From a virus (Duplodnaviria; Heunggongvirae; Uroviricota; Caudoviricetes), in the IMG/VR virus record IMGVR_UViG_2778261088_000007: a DNA stretch of 5,921 nt. The stretch is one strand, 5' to 3'. The position numbers and the translations under genes were made by a program. The notes under the pieces are model-generated. The model was not told where the DNA came from and did no database searches. It worked only from the letters and a program-made list of their open reading frames with translations. Below, piece by piece: positions 149-5,921 of the stretch (its first letter is position 1; each line of letters opens with the position of its first letter).

Positions 149-739
149 ATGTCTCGAATTTTTGCTTACTGTCGGATATCAACGCTGGATCAGACCACCG
201 AAAATCAACGCCGGGAAATCGAAAGTGCAGGTTTTAAAATCAAACCTCAGCAAATAATCGAAGAACACATTAGCGGCTCAGCAGCAACCAGTGAGCGTCC
301 TAGTTTTAACCGGTTGCTTGCTCGCCTGAAATGTGGTGATCAATTGATTGTGACAAAACTGGATCGCCTTGGTTGTAATGCAATGGATATCAGGAAAACA
401 GTGGAACAACTGACCGAAACAGGTATCAGAGTGCATTGCTTAGCATTGGGGGGCATTGACTTGACCAGTCCAACAGGAAAAATGATGATGCAAGTAATTT
501 CAGCAGTTGCTGAATTTGAACGAGACCTTTTACTTGAACGCACTCATTCCGGGATAGTAAGAGCCCGCGGCGCAGGGAAACGTTTTGGTCGACCACCTGT
601 GTTAAATGAAGAACAGAAACAGGTGGTATTCGAACGAATTAAGTCAGGTGTAAGTATAAGTGCCATTGCCCGGGAATTCAAAACCTCGCGGCAAACCATT
701 TTAAGAGCCAAAGCAAAACTTCAGACACCTGACATATAA
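149..739 (+). CDS. pinR: Serine recombinase / site-specific DNA invertase, PinR/PinQ-like, 196 aa
   Basis: ATG at 149 and TAA at 737-739 give a clean 591-nt ORF. The N-terminus ([14 protein letters not shown]) carries the conserved serine-recombinase catalytic motif, with the Ser in RIST as the presumptive nucleophile, and the C-terminus has a helix-turn-helix-like segment ([20 protein letters not shown]). From memory the whole protein matches the 196-aa PinR/PinQ invertases of E. coli cryptic prophages; pinR versus pinQ cannot be distinguished here. A weak purine-rich stretch (agag, 137-140) is the only Shine-Dalgarno candidate. Visibly more AT-rich than the adjacent fiber gene. Confidence 0.9.
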
Positions 740-836: not shown

Positions 837-1412
837 CTACGGCAGTGCTGGCCATTCAATATCCTGTGCAGTTGACGTATCAACACGGTTCAGCAATACC
901 CGATACTTTTTCCATGCTTCCAGCAACGAGATTTCTTCCTCCGTTGCAATTTCCAGATCTGCAGCATCCTGAAGCGGCGCAATATGCTCACTGGCTACCT
1001 GCATCAGGTTGTTTTTTGTTTCTTCCGCCTCCCGGATCCGGAACAGTTTTTCTGCTTCCGTATCCTTCACCCAGGCTGTGCCGTTCCACTTCTGAAACTC
1101 CCCTTCCGGCGATAACCAGGTAACATTTTTCGGTAACGGACCGAGTTCAGAAATAAATAACGCGTCGCCGGAAGCCACGTCATAAACCGTTTTACCCCGA
1201 TGATCTTCAACGAGATGCCACGATGACTCATCACTGTTGAAAACAGCCACGAAGCCAGCCGGAATATCTGGCGGTGCAATATCGGTACTGTTTGCTGGCA
1301 GACCTGTATGAGGCGGAATATATGCATCACCTTCACCAATAAATTCATTAGTTCCGGCCAGCAGATTATAAATTGTTATGGTCCGTGGTTGTTCACTCAT
1401 TCTGAATGCCAT
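837..1412 (-). CDS. tfaR: Tail fiber assembly protein / chaperone (lambda Tfa-like), 191 aa
   Basis: Minus-strand ORF with ATG at 1410-1412 (plus-strand cat) and TAG at 837-839. The N-terminus [54 protein letters not shown] is recognisable as the lambda Tfa / Rac TfaR family. Its start overlaps the stf stop in a TAATG arrangement, and a GAGG-like Shine-Dalgarno sits inside the last stf codons (plus about 1421-1426), consistent with translational coupling. Confidence 0.9.
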
Positions 1413-4400
1413 TATGCAAGCCTCACAATATAGTTAAATGCGATGTTTTTGACGGTGTTTTCCGCGTTACCAGCAGCGTTAACGGTGATGGTGTGTCCAT
1501 GTGAGCCAATCGCAACGGAGTGCGTATGAGCACCAATACCGACAGTATGTGCGTGTGCACCTGCGCTTGCAGCAGTACCCGATACAGAGTGCGTATGAGC
1601 GCCTGCAGAAGAAGTGTTAACACTGTATTTAGAATAATCAGGTGATCCACTTCCCGGAGCACCACTGGAACCACCTGAAACAAATGTCATCGAATGGGTA
1701 TGTGCACCGGCTGAAGCAGCCGTACCGCTAACACTATGGGTATGTGCACCAGTGTTATTCGTGGATTTAGTGCCGTAATCAAACGATGATGTGGTTTTCG
1801 TCCCCAAATCCGTACTGGATGCGCTGGCGCTGTGGGTGTGCGATTTAATGCCGTCCTGTTCCTGAGACAATACGGCACGACCACTGGCGGGCTTGCCCTT
1901 AATCGTCCAGCCACGCATATCAGGAATAACGCCTGACGGATAAGCCACTGCAAGTTTCGGGTATGCAGATTTGTCAAAAGTCTGCCCCTGCATCAGGGCA
2001 TAGCCAGACGGAACGGTATCTGATGGCCACGGGATTGGTGCGCCGACTGGGTAGCTTTCTGGTGGAAGATTTTTCGAGGTATAAACTTCTGCCCAGTCAT
2101 CCTCAAAACCATAACCGTCTCTTGAAGAACGGTAGAACAGACCACCATTTCTGTAATGCGCCTTCATCTGCAGGGTCCGGCAACTTCCGACTCCGGTATA
2201 GAAGTTAACCAGAATATAGCTGTCGCCAGAGCGAGTGACATTGTAAGCGCCTGATTCGGCATTCCATGGAACGCCACCATCCGCATCGGCATATGTATCC
2301 GTTGCCCTTCTGGCAAAAGCAGCCACATGCGCGGCGGTTAAAGTAATATCTTTGGAACCATCAAACTCAACACCAGAAACCCGTCTTGGCGTTTGCAGCT
2401 TTGTTGCTGTTAATGCATTACCGTTCAGACTTGCGGACAGTTTGGTTCCAATAACCAGTTCGCCGGTTGCGTTATCAATAGCAAACGGTCTTAATGTATT
2501 CCAGCCACCATAAACATCACCTTGATTGGTAAGCAGCAGGTAAGTTTTAGCGCCATCATTACGCCATAATGCACCATACTCTCCACCTATCATTCGAATC
2601 TGATTACCACCACGCGCTACAATTTCGTCTGTGGCAAAAAGTTTTTTGCACGACAAGTTATCGTTAACGATTAACGAATGAGACTCATAAAAACCACGCC
2701 CACTCTTAAAATCAAGGATAACGTCCGCCGCGATACATTCAGTCGCTGGATTTGTTGCCCCAAACTTATAGGTCGTATCATTAACAACGAGATCAGCACC
2801 AGGTGCGGATATTGACAGGCCATCTTCGATAAACGCAAAAACAGGGAAAGCAGCGCCATCAACATAGAACACAGAGCGCAAATCATCGCCCTTATTACTC
2901 ATCATTATTGAGTGGATGGCTCGTTCATTGTTTTGATATTGCCAGAACATTCCATAAGCATAACGCCCCCTGTCAGTCCAGCCACCAGGCATAACAAATC
3001 CGTTAAACTCGCAGTTATTCATCGGATCGCCTGCGGTTCGCGTTGCCGTGGTGATAATGACCCTTGATGCCAGTTCGCTTACTGAGCCAGCAGAACGCAT
3101 AACAACAACAGGGTAATATTTTCCAGATGTTGCACCTGCAGGAGCGTTAACCCGCACATAACGCATACCACGCTTATCAGCAAAGTCTGTTTTACTGACC
3201 GCGTTAATGTTGTTCAGGAAGCGTCCCTTATCGGGTATATCAGTGCCGTTCTGGTCTTTCTGCAGACGTTTCTCTGCATTGTCATAGGCTGATTTTACTG
3301 CCTTTGGCGTTGCCGCCAGCGTTTCAGACGTACTGTTGGTCGCACTGCTGAGCTGTACTATCCCCTTTTTCGTCGTGCTCGCATCCTCAAGCGCCACGGC
3401 GGATGCAATATCCTCTGCCCGTTTTGCTGCTGTCTCGGCGCGCGTTGCCGCGGATTCCGCCGTACTTTTGCTCTGAGCTGCCGCCGTCGCACTGCCAGCT
3501 GCCTCTGTCGCCTTCGTGGATGCCGTCGTGGCGCTGCCCTTCGCTGCTGACGCCTGTCTGGTCGCCTCATCTTTTGAAGCAGACGCCGATGATGCCGATG
3601 ACGCCGCCGAACTGGCTGACGATGCGGCAGCCGTTTTTGAGGATTCTGCGCTGGTTTCCGACGCTTTCGCGTTCGTTTCGGATGTCTTCGCTGCGGAAGC
3701 TGACCTCGCTGCTACCGTGGCCTGTTCAGTGGCTTCGCCAGCCTTCGTTGTGGCTGTTGAAGCGGATGATGCGGCGCTTTCTGCCGACTTTCCGGCAGCG
3801 GTGGCACTGGCTGAGGCCTGCCCGGCATTTGTTGACGCGGCGCTGGCAGATGAGGCAGCCGCTGTTTTTGAGTCTGCTGCTGCGGAGGCACTCTGTCCCG
3901 CTGCCGTCTCAGAAGACTTTGCGTTCGTCTCGGACGTTTTTGCCGCCTTCGCGGAAGTTCCTGCCGCTGTTGCCGAGGAGGCTGCACGACTGGCGCTCGA
4001 GGCTGCGCTCGTTTCTGATGATTTTGCCGCCTCTTTTGAAGCCGACGCATCCCTGGCTGAGGTGGCAGCTTCTGACGCTTTCGTGGTCGCGGTGGATGCA
4101 GAAGTGGCGGCTGATTGTTGTGACGCTGCCGCATTCGTTTCTGACGTTTTCGCCGCACCGGCACTGGTAGCCGCCGCGCTTTTTGAGGACTCTGCAGCGG
4201 CAGCACTTTTTGAGGCTTCAGTGGCCTTTGTTGATGCCGTTCCTGCGCTGGAAGACGCTGACTGAGCCGACGACGCGGCCTGTCCGGCTGACGTGCTGGC
4301 TGCACGTGCTGAATCTGCAGCATCAGTCGCACGGGTTGCCGCCTCACTGGCAGATGTGCCGGCATCACTGGCTGACTTCTTTGCGGCTGCCGTGTTCTGT

Positions 4401-4762
4401 GCCACCACGGACGCGTTACGCGCCACCTCTTCCACCATCAGTTCAAAACGACGCAGTGCCTCCGGACGGGCATCATCCTCCGTCATGGCACCGAGAAAAT
4501 CATTCAGCGTACCGGGTTGAGAATCTTCATACACGGTGATGGTCCCGGCATGTGACGGCGGGAATCCCTCCACCAACAGAATAACGCTGTACTGACCGTA
4601 CTCAACGTCCATGCTGTAACGCCCGGCTTCATCCGGATTTTCTGAGGCCAGCGTGTTCACCACCACAGTGGTACTGTTACGTTTTGCTTTCAGCTGGATT
4701 GTGCAGTTCTGTACCGGTTTTCCTGTGCCGTCTTTCAGTACACCTGAAATCTTTACTGCCAT
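1412..4762 (-). CDS. stfR: Side tail fiber protein (lambda Stf-like, Rac StfR-like), about 1116 aa from ATG 4760-4762; the ORF track begins at an in-frame GTG at 4766-4768
   Basis: Single uninterrupted 3.35-kb minus-strand ORF ending TAA at 1412-1414. From the ATG the N-terminus reads [26 protein letters not shown], matching the lambda Stf N-terminus from memory; the track's MNM start uses the GTG two codons upstream, so the ATG is the more likely start. A GGGGTGA Shine-Dalgarno lies about 5 nt upstream of the ATG. The C-terminus [22 protein letters not shown] is the conserved Stf/gp37-type fiber tip. Size and domain order resemble StfR of prophage Rac. Confidence 0.9.
1490..1843 (-). repeat. 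His-x-His repeat region at the stf C-terminal tip (seven HxH motifs), putative metal-binding needle domain
   Basis: Residues about 976-1093 contain SHTHS, AHTHS (three times), AHAHT, AHTHS and SHGHT. The 20-aa block [20 protein letters not shown] / [20 protein letters not shown] is duplicated, with matching nucleotide repeats (gagtgcgtatgagc at about 1519 and 1587; gggtatgtgcacc at about 1697 and 1737). Confidence 0.6.
3419..4411 (-). repeat. Ala/Ser/Thr-rich low-complexity shaft region of stf with three imperfect tandem units, each containing AAKTSETNA
   Basis: Protein residues about 120-450 are almost entirely A/S/T/K/E. The nucleotide motif gcattcgtttctgacgttttcgccgc and close variants recur at plus 4131-4156, 3921-3947 and 3669-3696 (spacing about 210 and 252 bp), each encoding AAKTSETNA on the minus strand. 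This compositional bias also creates the long spurious ORFs in other frames across the region. Confidence 0.6.
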
Positions 4763-4772
4763 ATTCACCCCA

Positions 4773-4801
4773 CAAAAAAGCCCGCCTGAACCGGCGGGCT
4801 G
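4773..4801 (-). terminator. Rho-independent terminator on the minus strand, immediately upstream of the stf ribosome-binding site
   Basis: Minus-strand sequence gcccgcc-ggttca-ggcgggc forms a 7-bp GC-rich stem with a 6-nt loop (plus 4780-4799), followed directly by TTTTTT (plus A-run 4774-4779) and then GTGGGGTGAATATG (SD plus stf start). There is no T-run on the plus-strand side, so it is oriented with the tail-fiber transcription direction. Confidence 0.55.
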
Positions 4802-4824
4802 TCATAACACTGTGTTACCTGGCT

Positions 4825-5241
4825 ATCCGTGACCTGAGCCGTCTGCAGGTTCAGTGAGTCCCCCGGCATCAGGTGCGGCACTTTTGCGCCTCCCAGACGG
4901 ACCGGTGCTGCGGCGTAATACGCGGCAATTTCACCAATCCAGCCGGTCAGCTTGTCCCGCTGCTCCTTACTGTTCGCGCCCAGAATAAAATCCATCGCTG
5001 ACTGCGTATCCAGCTCACTCTCAATGGTGGCGGCATACATCGCCTTCACAATGGCGCTCTGCAGCTGCGTGTTCTGCAGCGTGTCGAGCATCTTCATCTG
5101 CTCCATCACGCTGTAAAACACATTTGCACCGCGGGTCTGCCCGTCCTCCACGGGTTCAAAAACGTGAATGAACGAGGCGCGCCCGCCGGGTAACTCACGG
5201 GGTATCCATGTCCATTTCTGCGGCATCCAGCCAGGATATCC
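4825..5241 (-). pseudogene. Internal fragment of a lambda gpB-like portal protein gene, lacking its N-terminal and C-terminal portions
   Basis: The 153-aa minus-strand ORF (4765-5226) reads MPQKWTWIPRELPGGRASFIHVFEPVEDGQTRGANVFYSVMEQMKMLDTLQNTQLQSAIVKAMYAATIESELDTQSAMDFILGANS...GWIGEIAAYYAAAPVRLGGAKVPHLMPGDSLNLQTAQ, which from memory is collinear with the middle of lambda portal gpB; its initiating Met is an internal Met of the portal. Portal-frame similarity starts at GYPGWM (plus about 5224-5241) and is lost after QTAQ-VTD (plus about 4825-4836). The ORF then runs 20-odd codons through the terminator hairpin and stops at TGA overlapping the stf start region. Confidence 0.7.
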
Positions 5242-5921
5242 GTACCGATTTCGGTAAGGTAAACCCCGTTTTTGTTTCGCTTACGAGGCATGCTGGCCAC
5301 CGGCTTACCGTAGACGGATGCCCCTTTAATGGGGATCACCCGGAACAGCCCATGCTTTTTCGAGCGTTCATACACAATGGTCGGGTCAATCCCGCCAGTA
5401 TCCCAGCAGATACGGGATATCGACATTTCTGCACCATTCCGGCGGGTATAGGTTTTATTGATGGCCTCATCCACACGCAGCAGCGTCTGTTCATCGTCGT
5501 GGCGGCCCATAATAATCTGCCGATCAATCAGCCAGCTTTCCTCACCCGGCCCCCATCCCCATACGCGCATTTCGTAGCGGTCCAGCTGGGAGTCGATACC
5601 GGCGGTCAGGTAAGCCACACGGTCAGGAACGGGCGCTGAATAATGCTCTTTCCGCTCTGCCATCACTTCAGCATCCGGACGTTCACCGATTTTCGCTTCC
5701 CACGTCTCACCGAGCGTGGTGTTCACGAAGGTTTTACGTTTTCCCGTATCCCCTTTCGTCTTCATCCAGTCTTTGACAATCTGCACCCAGGTGGTGAACG
5801 GACTGTACGCCGTCCAGATGTGAAAGGTCACACTGTCAGGCGGTTCAATCTCTTCACCGGATGACGAAAACCAGAGAATGCCATCACGGGTCCAGATCCC
5901 GGTCTTTTCGCAGATATAACG
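5238..5921 (-). pseudogene. Internal fragment of a lambda gpA-like terminase large subunit gene, 3'-truncated and extending beyond the window edge
   Basis: The minus-strand frame is open from the window edge (..RYICEKTGIWTRDGILWFSSSGEEIEPPDS-VTFHIWTAYSPFTTWVQIVKDWMKTKGDTGKRKTFVNTTLGETWEAKIGERPDAEVMAERKEHYSAPVPDRVAYLTAGIDSQLDRYEMRVWGWGPGEESWLIDRQIIMGRHDDEQTLLRVDEAINKTYTRRNGAEMSISRICWDTGGIDPTIVYERSKKHGLFRVIPIKGASVYGKPVASMPRKRNKNGVYLTEIGTD), matching lambda gpA from memory. After LTEIGTD (D codon at plus 5238-5240) the frame runs into portal-derived DNA out of frame and terminates at 5106 after a nonsense tail (ILAGCRRNGHGYPVSYPAG...). The track's 5831 start is only an internal GTG. Confidence 0.7.

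Follow-up and report, generated by a model that had tools for sequence, protein, structure and literature searches.

Receptor-binding tips of the T4/lambda-based RBP family combine a conserved tip of 215 aa with a variable segment at residues 932-965 (PMC9659904). In phage T4, gp37 binds seven Fe atoms through His-x-His (HxH) motifs along its needle, H929 and H931 are essential, the tip subdomain 932-959 binds LPS and OmpC, and folding requires both gp38 and gp57A (PMC6957217). The ions in the T4 tip were assigned as iron (PMC6957217, PMC11705849). The side tail fiber Stf of phage lambda resembles gp37 and binds OmpC (PMC12617516; PMC7291167).

The window analysed here, i.e., the whole 5,921-nt stretch of the viral record IMGVR_UViG_2778261088_000007, encodes a fiber of this type. 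As a whole, it is very probably best explained as a decayed prophage encoding a lambdoid Stf with a tip of the T4 gp37 type, in which a metal-pinned needle carries an old repeat and a cassette swapped between phages. By homology, the tip is a member of the T4 gp37/lambda Stf receptor-binding tip family, an already known kind.

A side tail fiber gene in a decayed prophage

The stf gene and its neighbour tfa are both found on the minus strand (Table 1). In the list of open reading frames, stf starts at a GTG at 4768 (1412-4768), 2 codons before the likely start; residue numbers used here count from this GTG, and numbering from the likely ATG is obtained by subtracting 2. The orthologue in E. coli 1303 is annotated in RefSeq with 3351 nt. 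Stf matches the Pfam families PF08400 phage_tail_N (E 1e-71), PF21446, PF07484 Collar and PF03335, and its N-terminus (MAVKISG...) matches residues 1-94 of PDB 9e7m (E 6.6e-52). With such a tail-attachment domain, the product is, as judged from its sequence, a lambdoid side tail fiber. An ORF on the plus strand (1520-1645) and those in other frames of the region were rejected as by-products of the minus-strand stf.

The tfa gene lies directly downstream and is translationally coupled to stf, its start codon overlapping the stf stop (TAATG). The encoded Tfa has 94% identity with lambda Tfa and 29% with T4 gp38 (E 2e-17), in agreement with the preliminary description of this DNA, which had called for a Tfa/gp38-type chaperone. 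The gene order is stf, then tfa, then the invertase gene pin, and the window is located at the Qin site (ydfK-pinQ-tfaQ-stf...nohA).

On the upstream side of stf, only fragments of the terminase gpA and portal genes are left; there are no tail genes and no J-lom, hence no intact tail cluster. The order J-lom-stf is present in the relatives 2H10, PhiR26_1 and lambda. The gene is nevertheless an stf, in a prophage that is deleted. The host element is a decayed, defective Qin-site E. coli prophage without head and tail genes and, therefore, the fiber cannot arm a virion of its own.

Despite the presence of the invertase, no Gin/Pin/Cin-type invertible tail-fiber switch was found. No crossover-like site with at most 3 mismatches was detected, using a consensus with which a divergent site could be missed, the inverted repeats were chance-level ones only, and the ORF list of the window contains neither a second tfa nor an stf' segment.

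Table 1. Features of the stf-tfa region of the window, with residues in the numbering from the GTG at 4768
Feature	Position (nt)	Strand	Residues	Remarks
stf, side tail fiber gene	1412..4762	minus		1116 aa from the likely real ATG at 4762; stop TAA 1412-1414
tfa, tail fiber assembly chaperone	837..1412	minus		191 aa; PF02413 Caudo_TAP, E 7e-43
gp37-type receptor-binding tip (collar, stem, head)	1415..2062	minus	903-1118	2xgf_A match; phrog_295 tail fiber protein, E 5e-136
Collar domain, first part	1844..2059	minus	904-975	T4 gp37 811-881; PF07484 at 909-956
Ascending stem strand, HxH motifs 1-3	1694..1843	minus	976-1025	T4 882-931
Head ("tip" subdomain), 26 residues	1616..1693	minus	1026-1051	T4 932-959; hypervariable, presumed receptor-contact surface
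Descending stem strand, HxH motifs 4-7	1466..1615	minus	1052-1101	T4 960-1009
Collar domain, second part	1415..1465	minus	1102-1118	T4 1010-1026
HxH motifs 1-3	1832-1840, 1736-1744, 1694-1702	minus		Translation of stf
HxH motifs 4-7	1589-1597, 1547-1555, 1520-1528, 1493-1501	minus		Translation of stf
His-box block 1, 17 residues	1700..1750	minus	1007-1023	Motif 2 to first His of motif 3
His-box block 2, 17 residues	1553..1603	minus	1056-1072	Motif 4 to first His of motif 5
Exchange cassette (block 1, head, block 2), 198 nt	1556..1753	minus	1006-1071	Differs from 2H10 stf

A tip in register with T4 gp37

The HxH motifs start at residues 977, 1009, 1023, 1058, 1072, 1081 and 1090 and contain 14 of the 19 His of Stf. 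Among 20,000 shuffles of the whole protein, the maximum was 4 HxH in any shuffle; when the last 150 residues were shuffled with their 14 His kept, 7 HxH were reached in none and 6 HxH in one. The seven motifs of the preliminary description are real, and its coordinates, 1490-1843, exactly frame the stretch S-HTH...HGH-T. The spacers, described there as Gly/Ser/Ala-rich, are indeed rich in Gly/Ser/Ala/Thr, while the placement within the C-terminal 120 residues is approximate, the motifs spanning 116 residues and ending 26 before the C-terminus.

The proposed relation to the gp37 tip was supported. The last 216 residues align with the 2XGF chain in phmmer with E=1.9e-88 (query 903-1118 versus chain 26-242), and the tip is about 70% identical to T4 gp37 and 68% identical to lambda Stf. 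In a check of the His register that had been set beforehand, all seven HxH motifs fell in register with T4 His 883/885, 915/917, 929/931, 966/968, 980/982, 989/991 and 998/1000. The alignment has only two small gaps, none of them at any HxH, and a five-way alignment agrees. The spacing of the motifs is 32,14,35,14,9,9 versus 32,14,37,14,9,9 in T4. As in the rest of the family, the sequences diverge only between motifs 3 and 4, and the flanks are conserved.

The domain boundaries in Table 1 were carried over from T4 (PMC6957217) through the alignment with the 2XGF chain. The collar match scored 42.8 bits (cut-off 24) and PF03335, the 14-aa GxHxH "Phage_fiber" repeat, 44 bits (cut-off 20) with six stretches in the tip. 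The second part of the collar is identical in lambda, 2H10 and PhiR26_1 and shows one conservative change region in T4. An AlphaFold2 monomer of the 216-residue tip, based on a 28-sequence alignment, gave a mean pLDDT of 52.5 and a pTM of 0.18; a single-chain model cannot capture a trimer with intertwined chains and bound metal.

Homology with the solved T4 tip suggests that three Stf chains would fold with the help of Tfa into a collar, from which a thin six-stranded antiparallel beta needle would extend, each chain running up and then back down. Both His of each HxH are predicted to point into the three-fold axis; with two axis-facing His on each of three chains, six imidazoles would therefore surround each metal ion (Fe in T4), and the seven motifs would line up seven ions that pin the needle together. 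The 26-30 residues between motifs 3 and 4 would form the head at the far end, touching the bacterial receptor. The two 17-residue blocks would then be a pair of repeats with a 14-residue period flanking the head, block 1 ascending and block 2 descending. They probably lie side by side with an offset of about 7 residues, their four HxH motifs alternating to form the four ion sites closest to the head. From residue spacing, and not from coordinates, the order of the ion sites along the axis, starting at the head, would be motifs 3,4,2,5,6,7,1.

This arrangement can be compared with a survey of 120 relatives, of which 108 have a complete tip and 102 a regular one. The spacing 32,14,X,14,9,9, with X=35-56, is found in 94 of the 108 complete tips. 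The 102 regular tips include an 8-motif form (42;9,9,9; n=6) and a 9-motif form (52;9,9,9,9; n=2), and in these 8- and 9-motif tips both arms are always altered together. Similarly, the relative P0109 has a single HxH instead of each block, on both arms together. Such co-variation of the arms would be expected from a hairpin that runs up and down. The needle would thus grow in coupled steps, with 10 more residues on the ascending strand and one more 9-residue HxH unit on the descending strand, and the survey yields a simple needle-length rule of 7, 8 or 9 ion sites with both arms in step.

An old repeat on both sides of the head

The preliminary description had reported an internal 20-aa duplication and attributed it to recombination or slippage within the tip. 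The repeat is present, but it is 17 exact residues long, or 18/19 including the following xH. At the DNA level, block 1 and block 2 share 34 of 51 nt and 5 of 17 codons, with three Ser switches between the AGY and TCN classes, while 37.0 +/- 2.6 nt and 5.3 +/- 1.9 codons are expected for two independent synonymous back-translations. The copies are hence at the DNA identity expected from synonymous chance, and the two-block layout is found in every relative, which argues against the proposed origin. The blocks are identical to each other at 8/17 positions in T4 versus 17/17 here, at 11-12/17 in lambda, and at 16-17/17 in tips with at least 4 different head types. The block repeat is an ancient structural repeat kept by purifying selection on the protein, and no recent event at the DNA level produced it; the data would agree with an ancient duplication dating back to when the family arose. 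The orthologous blocks of 2H10 are synonymously saturated relative to those of the window. For the blocks alone, only this saturated synonymous fraction and the single amino-acid difference were used, because Nei-Gojobori counts the Ser TCN/AGY switches as amino-acid steps and thereby inflates the nonsynonymous figure.

If replication slippage or unequal recombination had recently duplicated the block within the tip, two blocks identical at all 17 residues would readily follow. Precedents for rearrangement at these sites exist, as the Logan contig L006 (protein P0088) has lost 147 nt in frame, its two blocks being fused at an octamer common to both, GGTGCACA, a natural deletion which is rare, with one case, and T4 host-range mutants reportedly carry duplications bounded by His boxes (Tetart et al. 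1996). However, a DNA likeness equal to that of independent back-translations, the same layout in T4, lambda and all 102 regular tips, and the saturation relative to 2H10 make such an event almost certainly the wrong explanation. There is a small but real chance that the blocks became identical when, in one sub-lineage, an old intragenic gene conversion copied block 2 over block 1, with synonymous changes then building up over a long time, in place of purifying selection acting separately on two old copies. From one head type to another, block 2 hardly changes (G[AN]H[TS]HS[LV]SGTA[AV]SAGAH), block 1 varies (…SGSTNAAGNH, …SGTANSAGAH, …SGSTGSAGAH) and is block-2-like in some cassettes only, and AV116 combines the head type of the window with an unlike block 1, GAHTHSLSGSTNTTGAH. 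Nevertheless, a conversion has left no DNA trace and, with identical blocks next to four unrelated heads, conversion would have had to occur several times, or the cassette to recombine internally.

Within the preferred reading of an ancient repeat under purifying selection, it is conceivable, but very unlikely, that the blocks are kept identical as protein while their DNA is kept maximally different. The former would follow if the alternating ion sites by the head need matched strands, and the latter if DNA similarity invites deletion of the head, as in the L006 deletion. Synonymous-site selection on a structural repeat would then protect a receptor-binding module. Active avoidance of DNA likeness between the blocks was not detected, the observed identity not being below chance (P(<=observed)=0.17).

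Exchange of the block-head-block cassette

Recombination did contribute to this tip, although in another form than was first proposed: the whole block-head-block cassette was swapped between phages and the duplicated block is not its mark. Compared with the stf of 2H10 over 60-nt stretches, identity is 53-60/60 elsewhere and 31-48/60 in the cassette only, with breakpoints placed at the codon level. Outside the cassette, DNA identity is about 98%, with a dS of 0.071 and a dN of 0.012, while inside the cassette pS is 0.74 (saturated). In AV116, DNA identity to the window is 83-93% in the head and mostly 53-87% per 10 codons in the flanks, so that the head stands above most of the flanks. At least 12 head types occur among the 120 relatives, and specificity probably evolves through such swaps.

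The cassette is widespread. A database cluster of 259 sequences matches the tip at 100% identity, and a stretch of 233 nt that spans the cassette is present to at least 80% in about 14% of complete E. coli genomes. In K-12 (BW25113), the match to this 233-nt query covers 58% at 83% identity. The unit at nt 1556-1753 can thus be seen as a natural, exchangeable and putative specificity module with clean conserved flanks, common to cryptic prophages (about 1/7 of complete E. coli genomes) and to lytic Mosigvirus phages, which could be grafted onto lambda- or T4-based vectors.

Metal and present role of the fiber

By analogy with T4, the tip studied here may bind iron. The HxH ladder of lambdoid fibers could instead bind Zn, Ni or Co, or be partly occupied, as His6 octahedral sites can take several divalent ions. 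This alternative is unlikely, because the residues that form the sites, together with those next to them, share 70% identity with T4, where the ions were assigned as iron (PMC6957217, PMC11705849). Another alternative concerns the present role of the gene, and not its encoded product: stf could be a functionless, decaying relic that is intact by chance. The loss of the tail genes upstream, where terminase and portal fragments are all that is left, and the many truncations, fusions and in-frame deletions among relatives make this conceivable. On the other hand, the 3351-nt ORF is intact and coupled to tfa, the dN/dS is about 0.17 versus the free-living phage 2H10, and the cassette stretch persists in the proportion of E. 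coli genomes given above; on balance, a relic is possible but doubtful.

As a discovery, the locus carries little weight, since the T4/lambda tip family, the HxH iron ladder, the variable head and the Tfa/gp38 chaperones have all been described. Databases already contain this very tip hundreds of times, and its practical value is that of a catalogued cassette.

Comparison with known systems

The tip shares with T4 gp37 the collar-stem-head layout, the seven HxH motifs, a chaperone gene immediately downstream and the last 16 residues, which are identical. The head, however, is 2 residues shorter and mostly of other sequence, and only G938 and G942 are retained among the residues essential for receptor binding in T4. 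Outside the tip, the protein belongs with the lambdoid Stf fibers rather than with the T-even distal half fibers, its chaperone is of the lambda type, and no gp57A gene is in view.

Compared with lambda Stf, identity is about 94% for the N-terminal tail-attachment domain (residues 1-94 of PDB 9e7m, Ur-lambda), and the tip, the Tfa and the stf-tfa order are alike. As the preliminary description had stated, the spacing differs and the linker is shorter, motifs 3 and 4 being 35 residues apart versus 48 in lambda. Lambda has eight HxH motifs (42,14,48,14,9,9,9) versus seven here, an extra 10-residue SFDYGTKTTG unit that is absent here, and a head of 43 residues versus 30. The Ala/Ser-rich shaft is much longer in the present protein (1116 aa) than in lambda Stf, which has 774 aa at full length; the lambda imm21 record used in the alignment has an annotated product of 682 aa.

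The same architecture is shared by Escherichia phage 2H10 (Glaedevirus) and the StfQ/StfR-type fibers of the E. coli cryptic prophages Qin and Rac, with the same stf-tfa-invertase order and 1116/1117 aa; 2H10 differs in the cassette, its head being SVTGASAVSQWSQNGSVHKVVSAASVNTSAA. The gp37 proteins of the Mosigvirus phages AV116 and AV118 have the same head type as the window (24/30 aa) in a cassette with 84% DNA identity, but these lytic T-even-like phages have diverged flanks and an eight-motif frame, in which block 1 and block 2 agree at 11/17 residues.

A gp37-type tip on the side tail fiber

When the whole Stf protein was searched against all PDB chains, the T4 gp37 tip (2xgf_A) was matched at E=1.9e-88 over Stf aa 903-1118 (numbered from the listed GTG). 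Seven HxH motifs had been claimed for this region in a preliminary description, whose coordinates bracket exactly those found by minus-strand translation (Table). Of the 19 His in Stf, 14 belong to these motifs; chance gave at most four HxH in 20,000 whole-protein shuffles, and seven were never attained in shuffles restricted to the last 150 residues. The proposed His register was borne out by alignment to 2xgf_A, in which each of the seven lies opposite a T4 HxH. Their counterparts in full-length T4 gp37, taken from a five-way alignment, are residues 883, 915, 929, 966, 980, 989 and 998.

In T4 gp37, the collar (811-881 and 1010-1026) is followed by a needle stem (882-931 and 960-1009) and a tip subdomain contacting LPS and OmpC (932-959); the needle contains seven iron atoms bound by His, of which H929 and H931 are essential (PMC6957217). 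That HxH pairs hold the seven ions is restated elsewhere (PMC11705849). All window HxH lie within the stem equivalents. Besides a Collar domain, Pfam recognises PF03335, the 14-residue 'Phage tail fibre repeat', in six stretches, and the PHROGs class is tail fiber protein. The tip is 70% identical to T4 gp37 and 68% to lambda Stf. For the window Tfa, identity is 94% with lambda Tfa and 29% with T4 gp38. The tfa gene is directly downstream, its ATG overlapping the stf stop codon. Homology, HxH register and the adjoining tfa thus agree with the earlier suggestion of a gp37-type tip with a Tfa chaperone. The window tip belongs to the 'T4- and lambda-based RBP family' (PMC9659904), in which a conserved tip of ~215 residues has a variable region (T4 932-965) and its gene is followed immediately by that of a chaperone. 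The feature is already known and already annotated.

We infer the metal, trimer and receptor of the window tip; an AlphaFold2 model of the single chain had a pLDDT of 52.5, too low for use. Among the T4 residues essential for receptor recognition (I933, N937, G938, G940, G942, G943, S947 and Y949), only G938 and G942 are identical in the window in the 2xgf_A alignment, and the receptor is probably different from that of T4.

Features of the window and of its Stf protein
Feature	Window nt	Strand	Stf aa	Basis or content
Serine invertase gene	149-739	+		Resolvase + HTH_7
tfa	837-1412	-		Caudo_TAP
stf (long gene)	1412-4768 as listed (ATG at 4762)	-		ORF listing
Seven HxH motifs	1493-1840	-	977, 1009, 1023, 1058, 1072, 1081, 1090	Translation
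Stem equivalents			976-1025, 1052-1101	Alignment to T4 gp37
Exact repeat			1007-1023, 1056-1072	Blocks 1 and 2
Cassette	1556-1753	-	1006-1071	Block 1, head, block 2
Mosaic region	2042-3442
Mu tail fiber protein S-like stretches			443-523, 814-909	PDB 5yvq, 8ju3
T4 gp34 trimerization domain-like stretch			665-779	PF21446, PDB 4uxe
Low-complexity shaft	~3449-4417		~118-440	Rich in Ala/Ser/Thr
Spurious ORFs	3403-4170, 3516-4265	+
Spurious ORF	3712-4368	-
Terminator-like hairpin	4800-4779	-		AGCCCGCCGGTTCAGGCGGGCT + TTTTTT
Portal fragment	ORF 4765-5226, portal homology to ~4826	-		Domain search
Terminase gpA nuclease domain fragment	5237-5921	-		Domain search

Origin of the repeated block and length of the needle

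The internal duplication described earlier was recovered, as 17 exact residues rather than 20. Its attribution to slippage did not hold, as DNA identity between the blocks is at chance level and the layout recurs throughout the family. Between the blocks, 34 of 51 nt and 5 of 17 codons are the same, and each of the three Ser codons swaps between AGY and TCN; two independent back-translations with the gene's own codon usage are expected to share 37.0 ± 2.6 nt and 5.3 ± 1.9 codons. By this measure no DNA signature of duplication is left between the blocks. The blocks are 14-residue-period repeats beside the head, one on the up-strand and one on the down-strand. Their protein identity is 8/17 in T4 and 11-12/17 in lambda, and among the relatives they are 16-17/17 identical with at least four unrelated heads. 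The two-block layout is universal in the family, and the duplication is old rather than a slip.

Among the best 120 database relatives, 102 have regular tips: 94 with seven HxH (first spacing 32, trailing spacings 9,9), six with eight (42; 9,9,9) and two with nine (52; 9,9,9,9). None of the 102 mixes arm types, and in one relative (P0109) a single HxH replaces each block in both arms together. The head is the sole free length, with motifs 3 and 4 separated by 35-56 residues. Such strict coupling of arm lengths fits the requirement of an antiparallel up-and-down needle. Judging from spacings rather than coordinates, the ion sites from the head outward would be motifs 3, 4, 2, 5, 6, 7 and 1, 7-9 residues apart, an order in which blocks 1 and 2 would interdigitate.

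Cassette exchange

In 60-nt steps along stf-tfa of phage 2H10, 53-60 of 60 nt agree with the window, except at window nt ~1768-1536 (31-48/60). At the codon level, divergence begins one codon before block 1 and ends at the last Ala of block 2, and even shared amino acids have different codons there. Outside this cassette, dS is 0.071 and dN 0.012; inside, the synonymous fraction is 0.74 (saturated). The phage records nearest to the cassette DNA are Mosigvirus AV116 and AV118 (84% identity). In gp37 of AV116 (L007 1350-3224), a lytic T-even-like phage, and also in AV118, the window head type is found (24/30 residues) in an eight-motif frame. The AV116 head is 83-93% identical to the window DNA and most flanks less, which suggests that lytic phages and cryptic prophages have exchanged the cassette. 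Together with the 2H10 divergence being limited to the cassette, this indicates that lambdoid prophages and T-even-like phages pass the head and both blocks to and fro as one unit. The mosaic nature of these tail-fiber genes has long been known, and cassette transfer fits it.

In a heavily deleted prophage on a single contig (Logan ERR3061932, 988-1902; relative P0088), a 147-nt in-frame deletion joins blocks 1 and 2 at a shared octamer, GGTGCACA. With the head, motifs 3 and 4 are lost, so that the tip retains five motifs and no head; a tape-measure fragment is fused to the gene as well. Because it is known from one contig, the deletion may be an assembly artefact.

Many of the 120 relatives are likewise fusions with fragments (terminase, portal, tape-measure or other), showing that such prophages decayed repeatedly with the tip retained.

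Prophage setting and prevalence

Five genes or gene fragments are recognisable in the window by ORF listing and domain search. The terminase gpA fragment, which shares ~99% identity with mEp332 and Stx phages, adjoins the portal fragment, whose junction with the sequence upstream of stf is at ~nt 4825. Head and tail genes are absent between terminase gpA, the portal fragment and stf (4769-5921), and the prophage is heavily deleted. In E. coli 1303, the orthologous module occupies the Qin prophage site (ydfJ-ydfK-pinQ-tfaQ-stf ... nohA-ynfO-ydfO). Of 5426 complete E. coli genomes, 5239 contain parts of the window, and none contains the entire window in one piece (top coverage 88-89%). The tip is therefore carried by a decayed prophage of lambdoid type.

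The Pin-type serine invertase gene is intact and adjoins tfa across nt 740-836, as in phage 2H10. A second tfa is absent from the window, as is an stf' segment, and neither a Gin/Hin-like crossover site (up to 3 mismatches to the consensus allowed) nor a convincing inverted repeat was found in it; the invertase is without a visible substrate within the window.

For stf, the ATG is almost certainly the true start codon: translation from it gives an N-terminus, MAVKISG, resembling that of the lambda Stf N-terminal chain of PDB 9e7m, GGGGTGA precedes it, and the RefSeq length of the E. coli 1303 orthologue is 3351 nt. As the listed GTG falls within this Shine-Dalgarno sequence, the real Stf would be 1116 aa. 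A strong terminator-like hairpin lies just 5′ of the Shine-Dalgarno sequence and ATG. Stf is a mosaic between its lambda-type N-terminus and gp37-type tip, and the long ORFs that its long shaft produces in other frames are spurious.

A protein cluster of 259 member sequences (P0001) matches the tip at 100% identity. A 233-nt stretch across the cassette is matched over at least 80% of its length in 742 of the 5426 genomes, the best match being at least 95% identical in 651 records.

Comparison with lambda Stf

The gp37-like tip architecture of lambda Stf and its binding to OmpC are already described in reviews and in the 2025 Ur-lambda structure paper (PMC12617516, PMC7291167). The eight HxH of lambda Stf are spaced 42,14,48,14,9,9,9, whereas those of the window are spaced 32,14,35,14,9,9, in agreement with the preliminary description of a different spacing and a shorter linker between the HxH clusters (motifs 3-4). 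Lambda is longer in both arms, by an SFDYGTKTTG unit in the first and by a further 9-residue GAHxH unit in the second. Measured from the end of motif 3 to the residue preceding the Gly before motif 4, the lambda head has 43 residues and the window head 30. The main interpretation, an iron-ladder tip of gp37 type that has a Tfa chaperone and a spacing unlike that of lambda, is supported, and the window tip has the T4-like minimal seven-site form.
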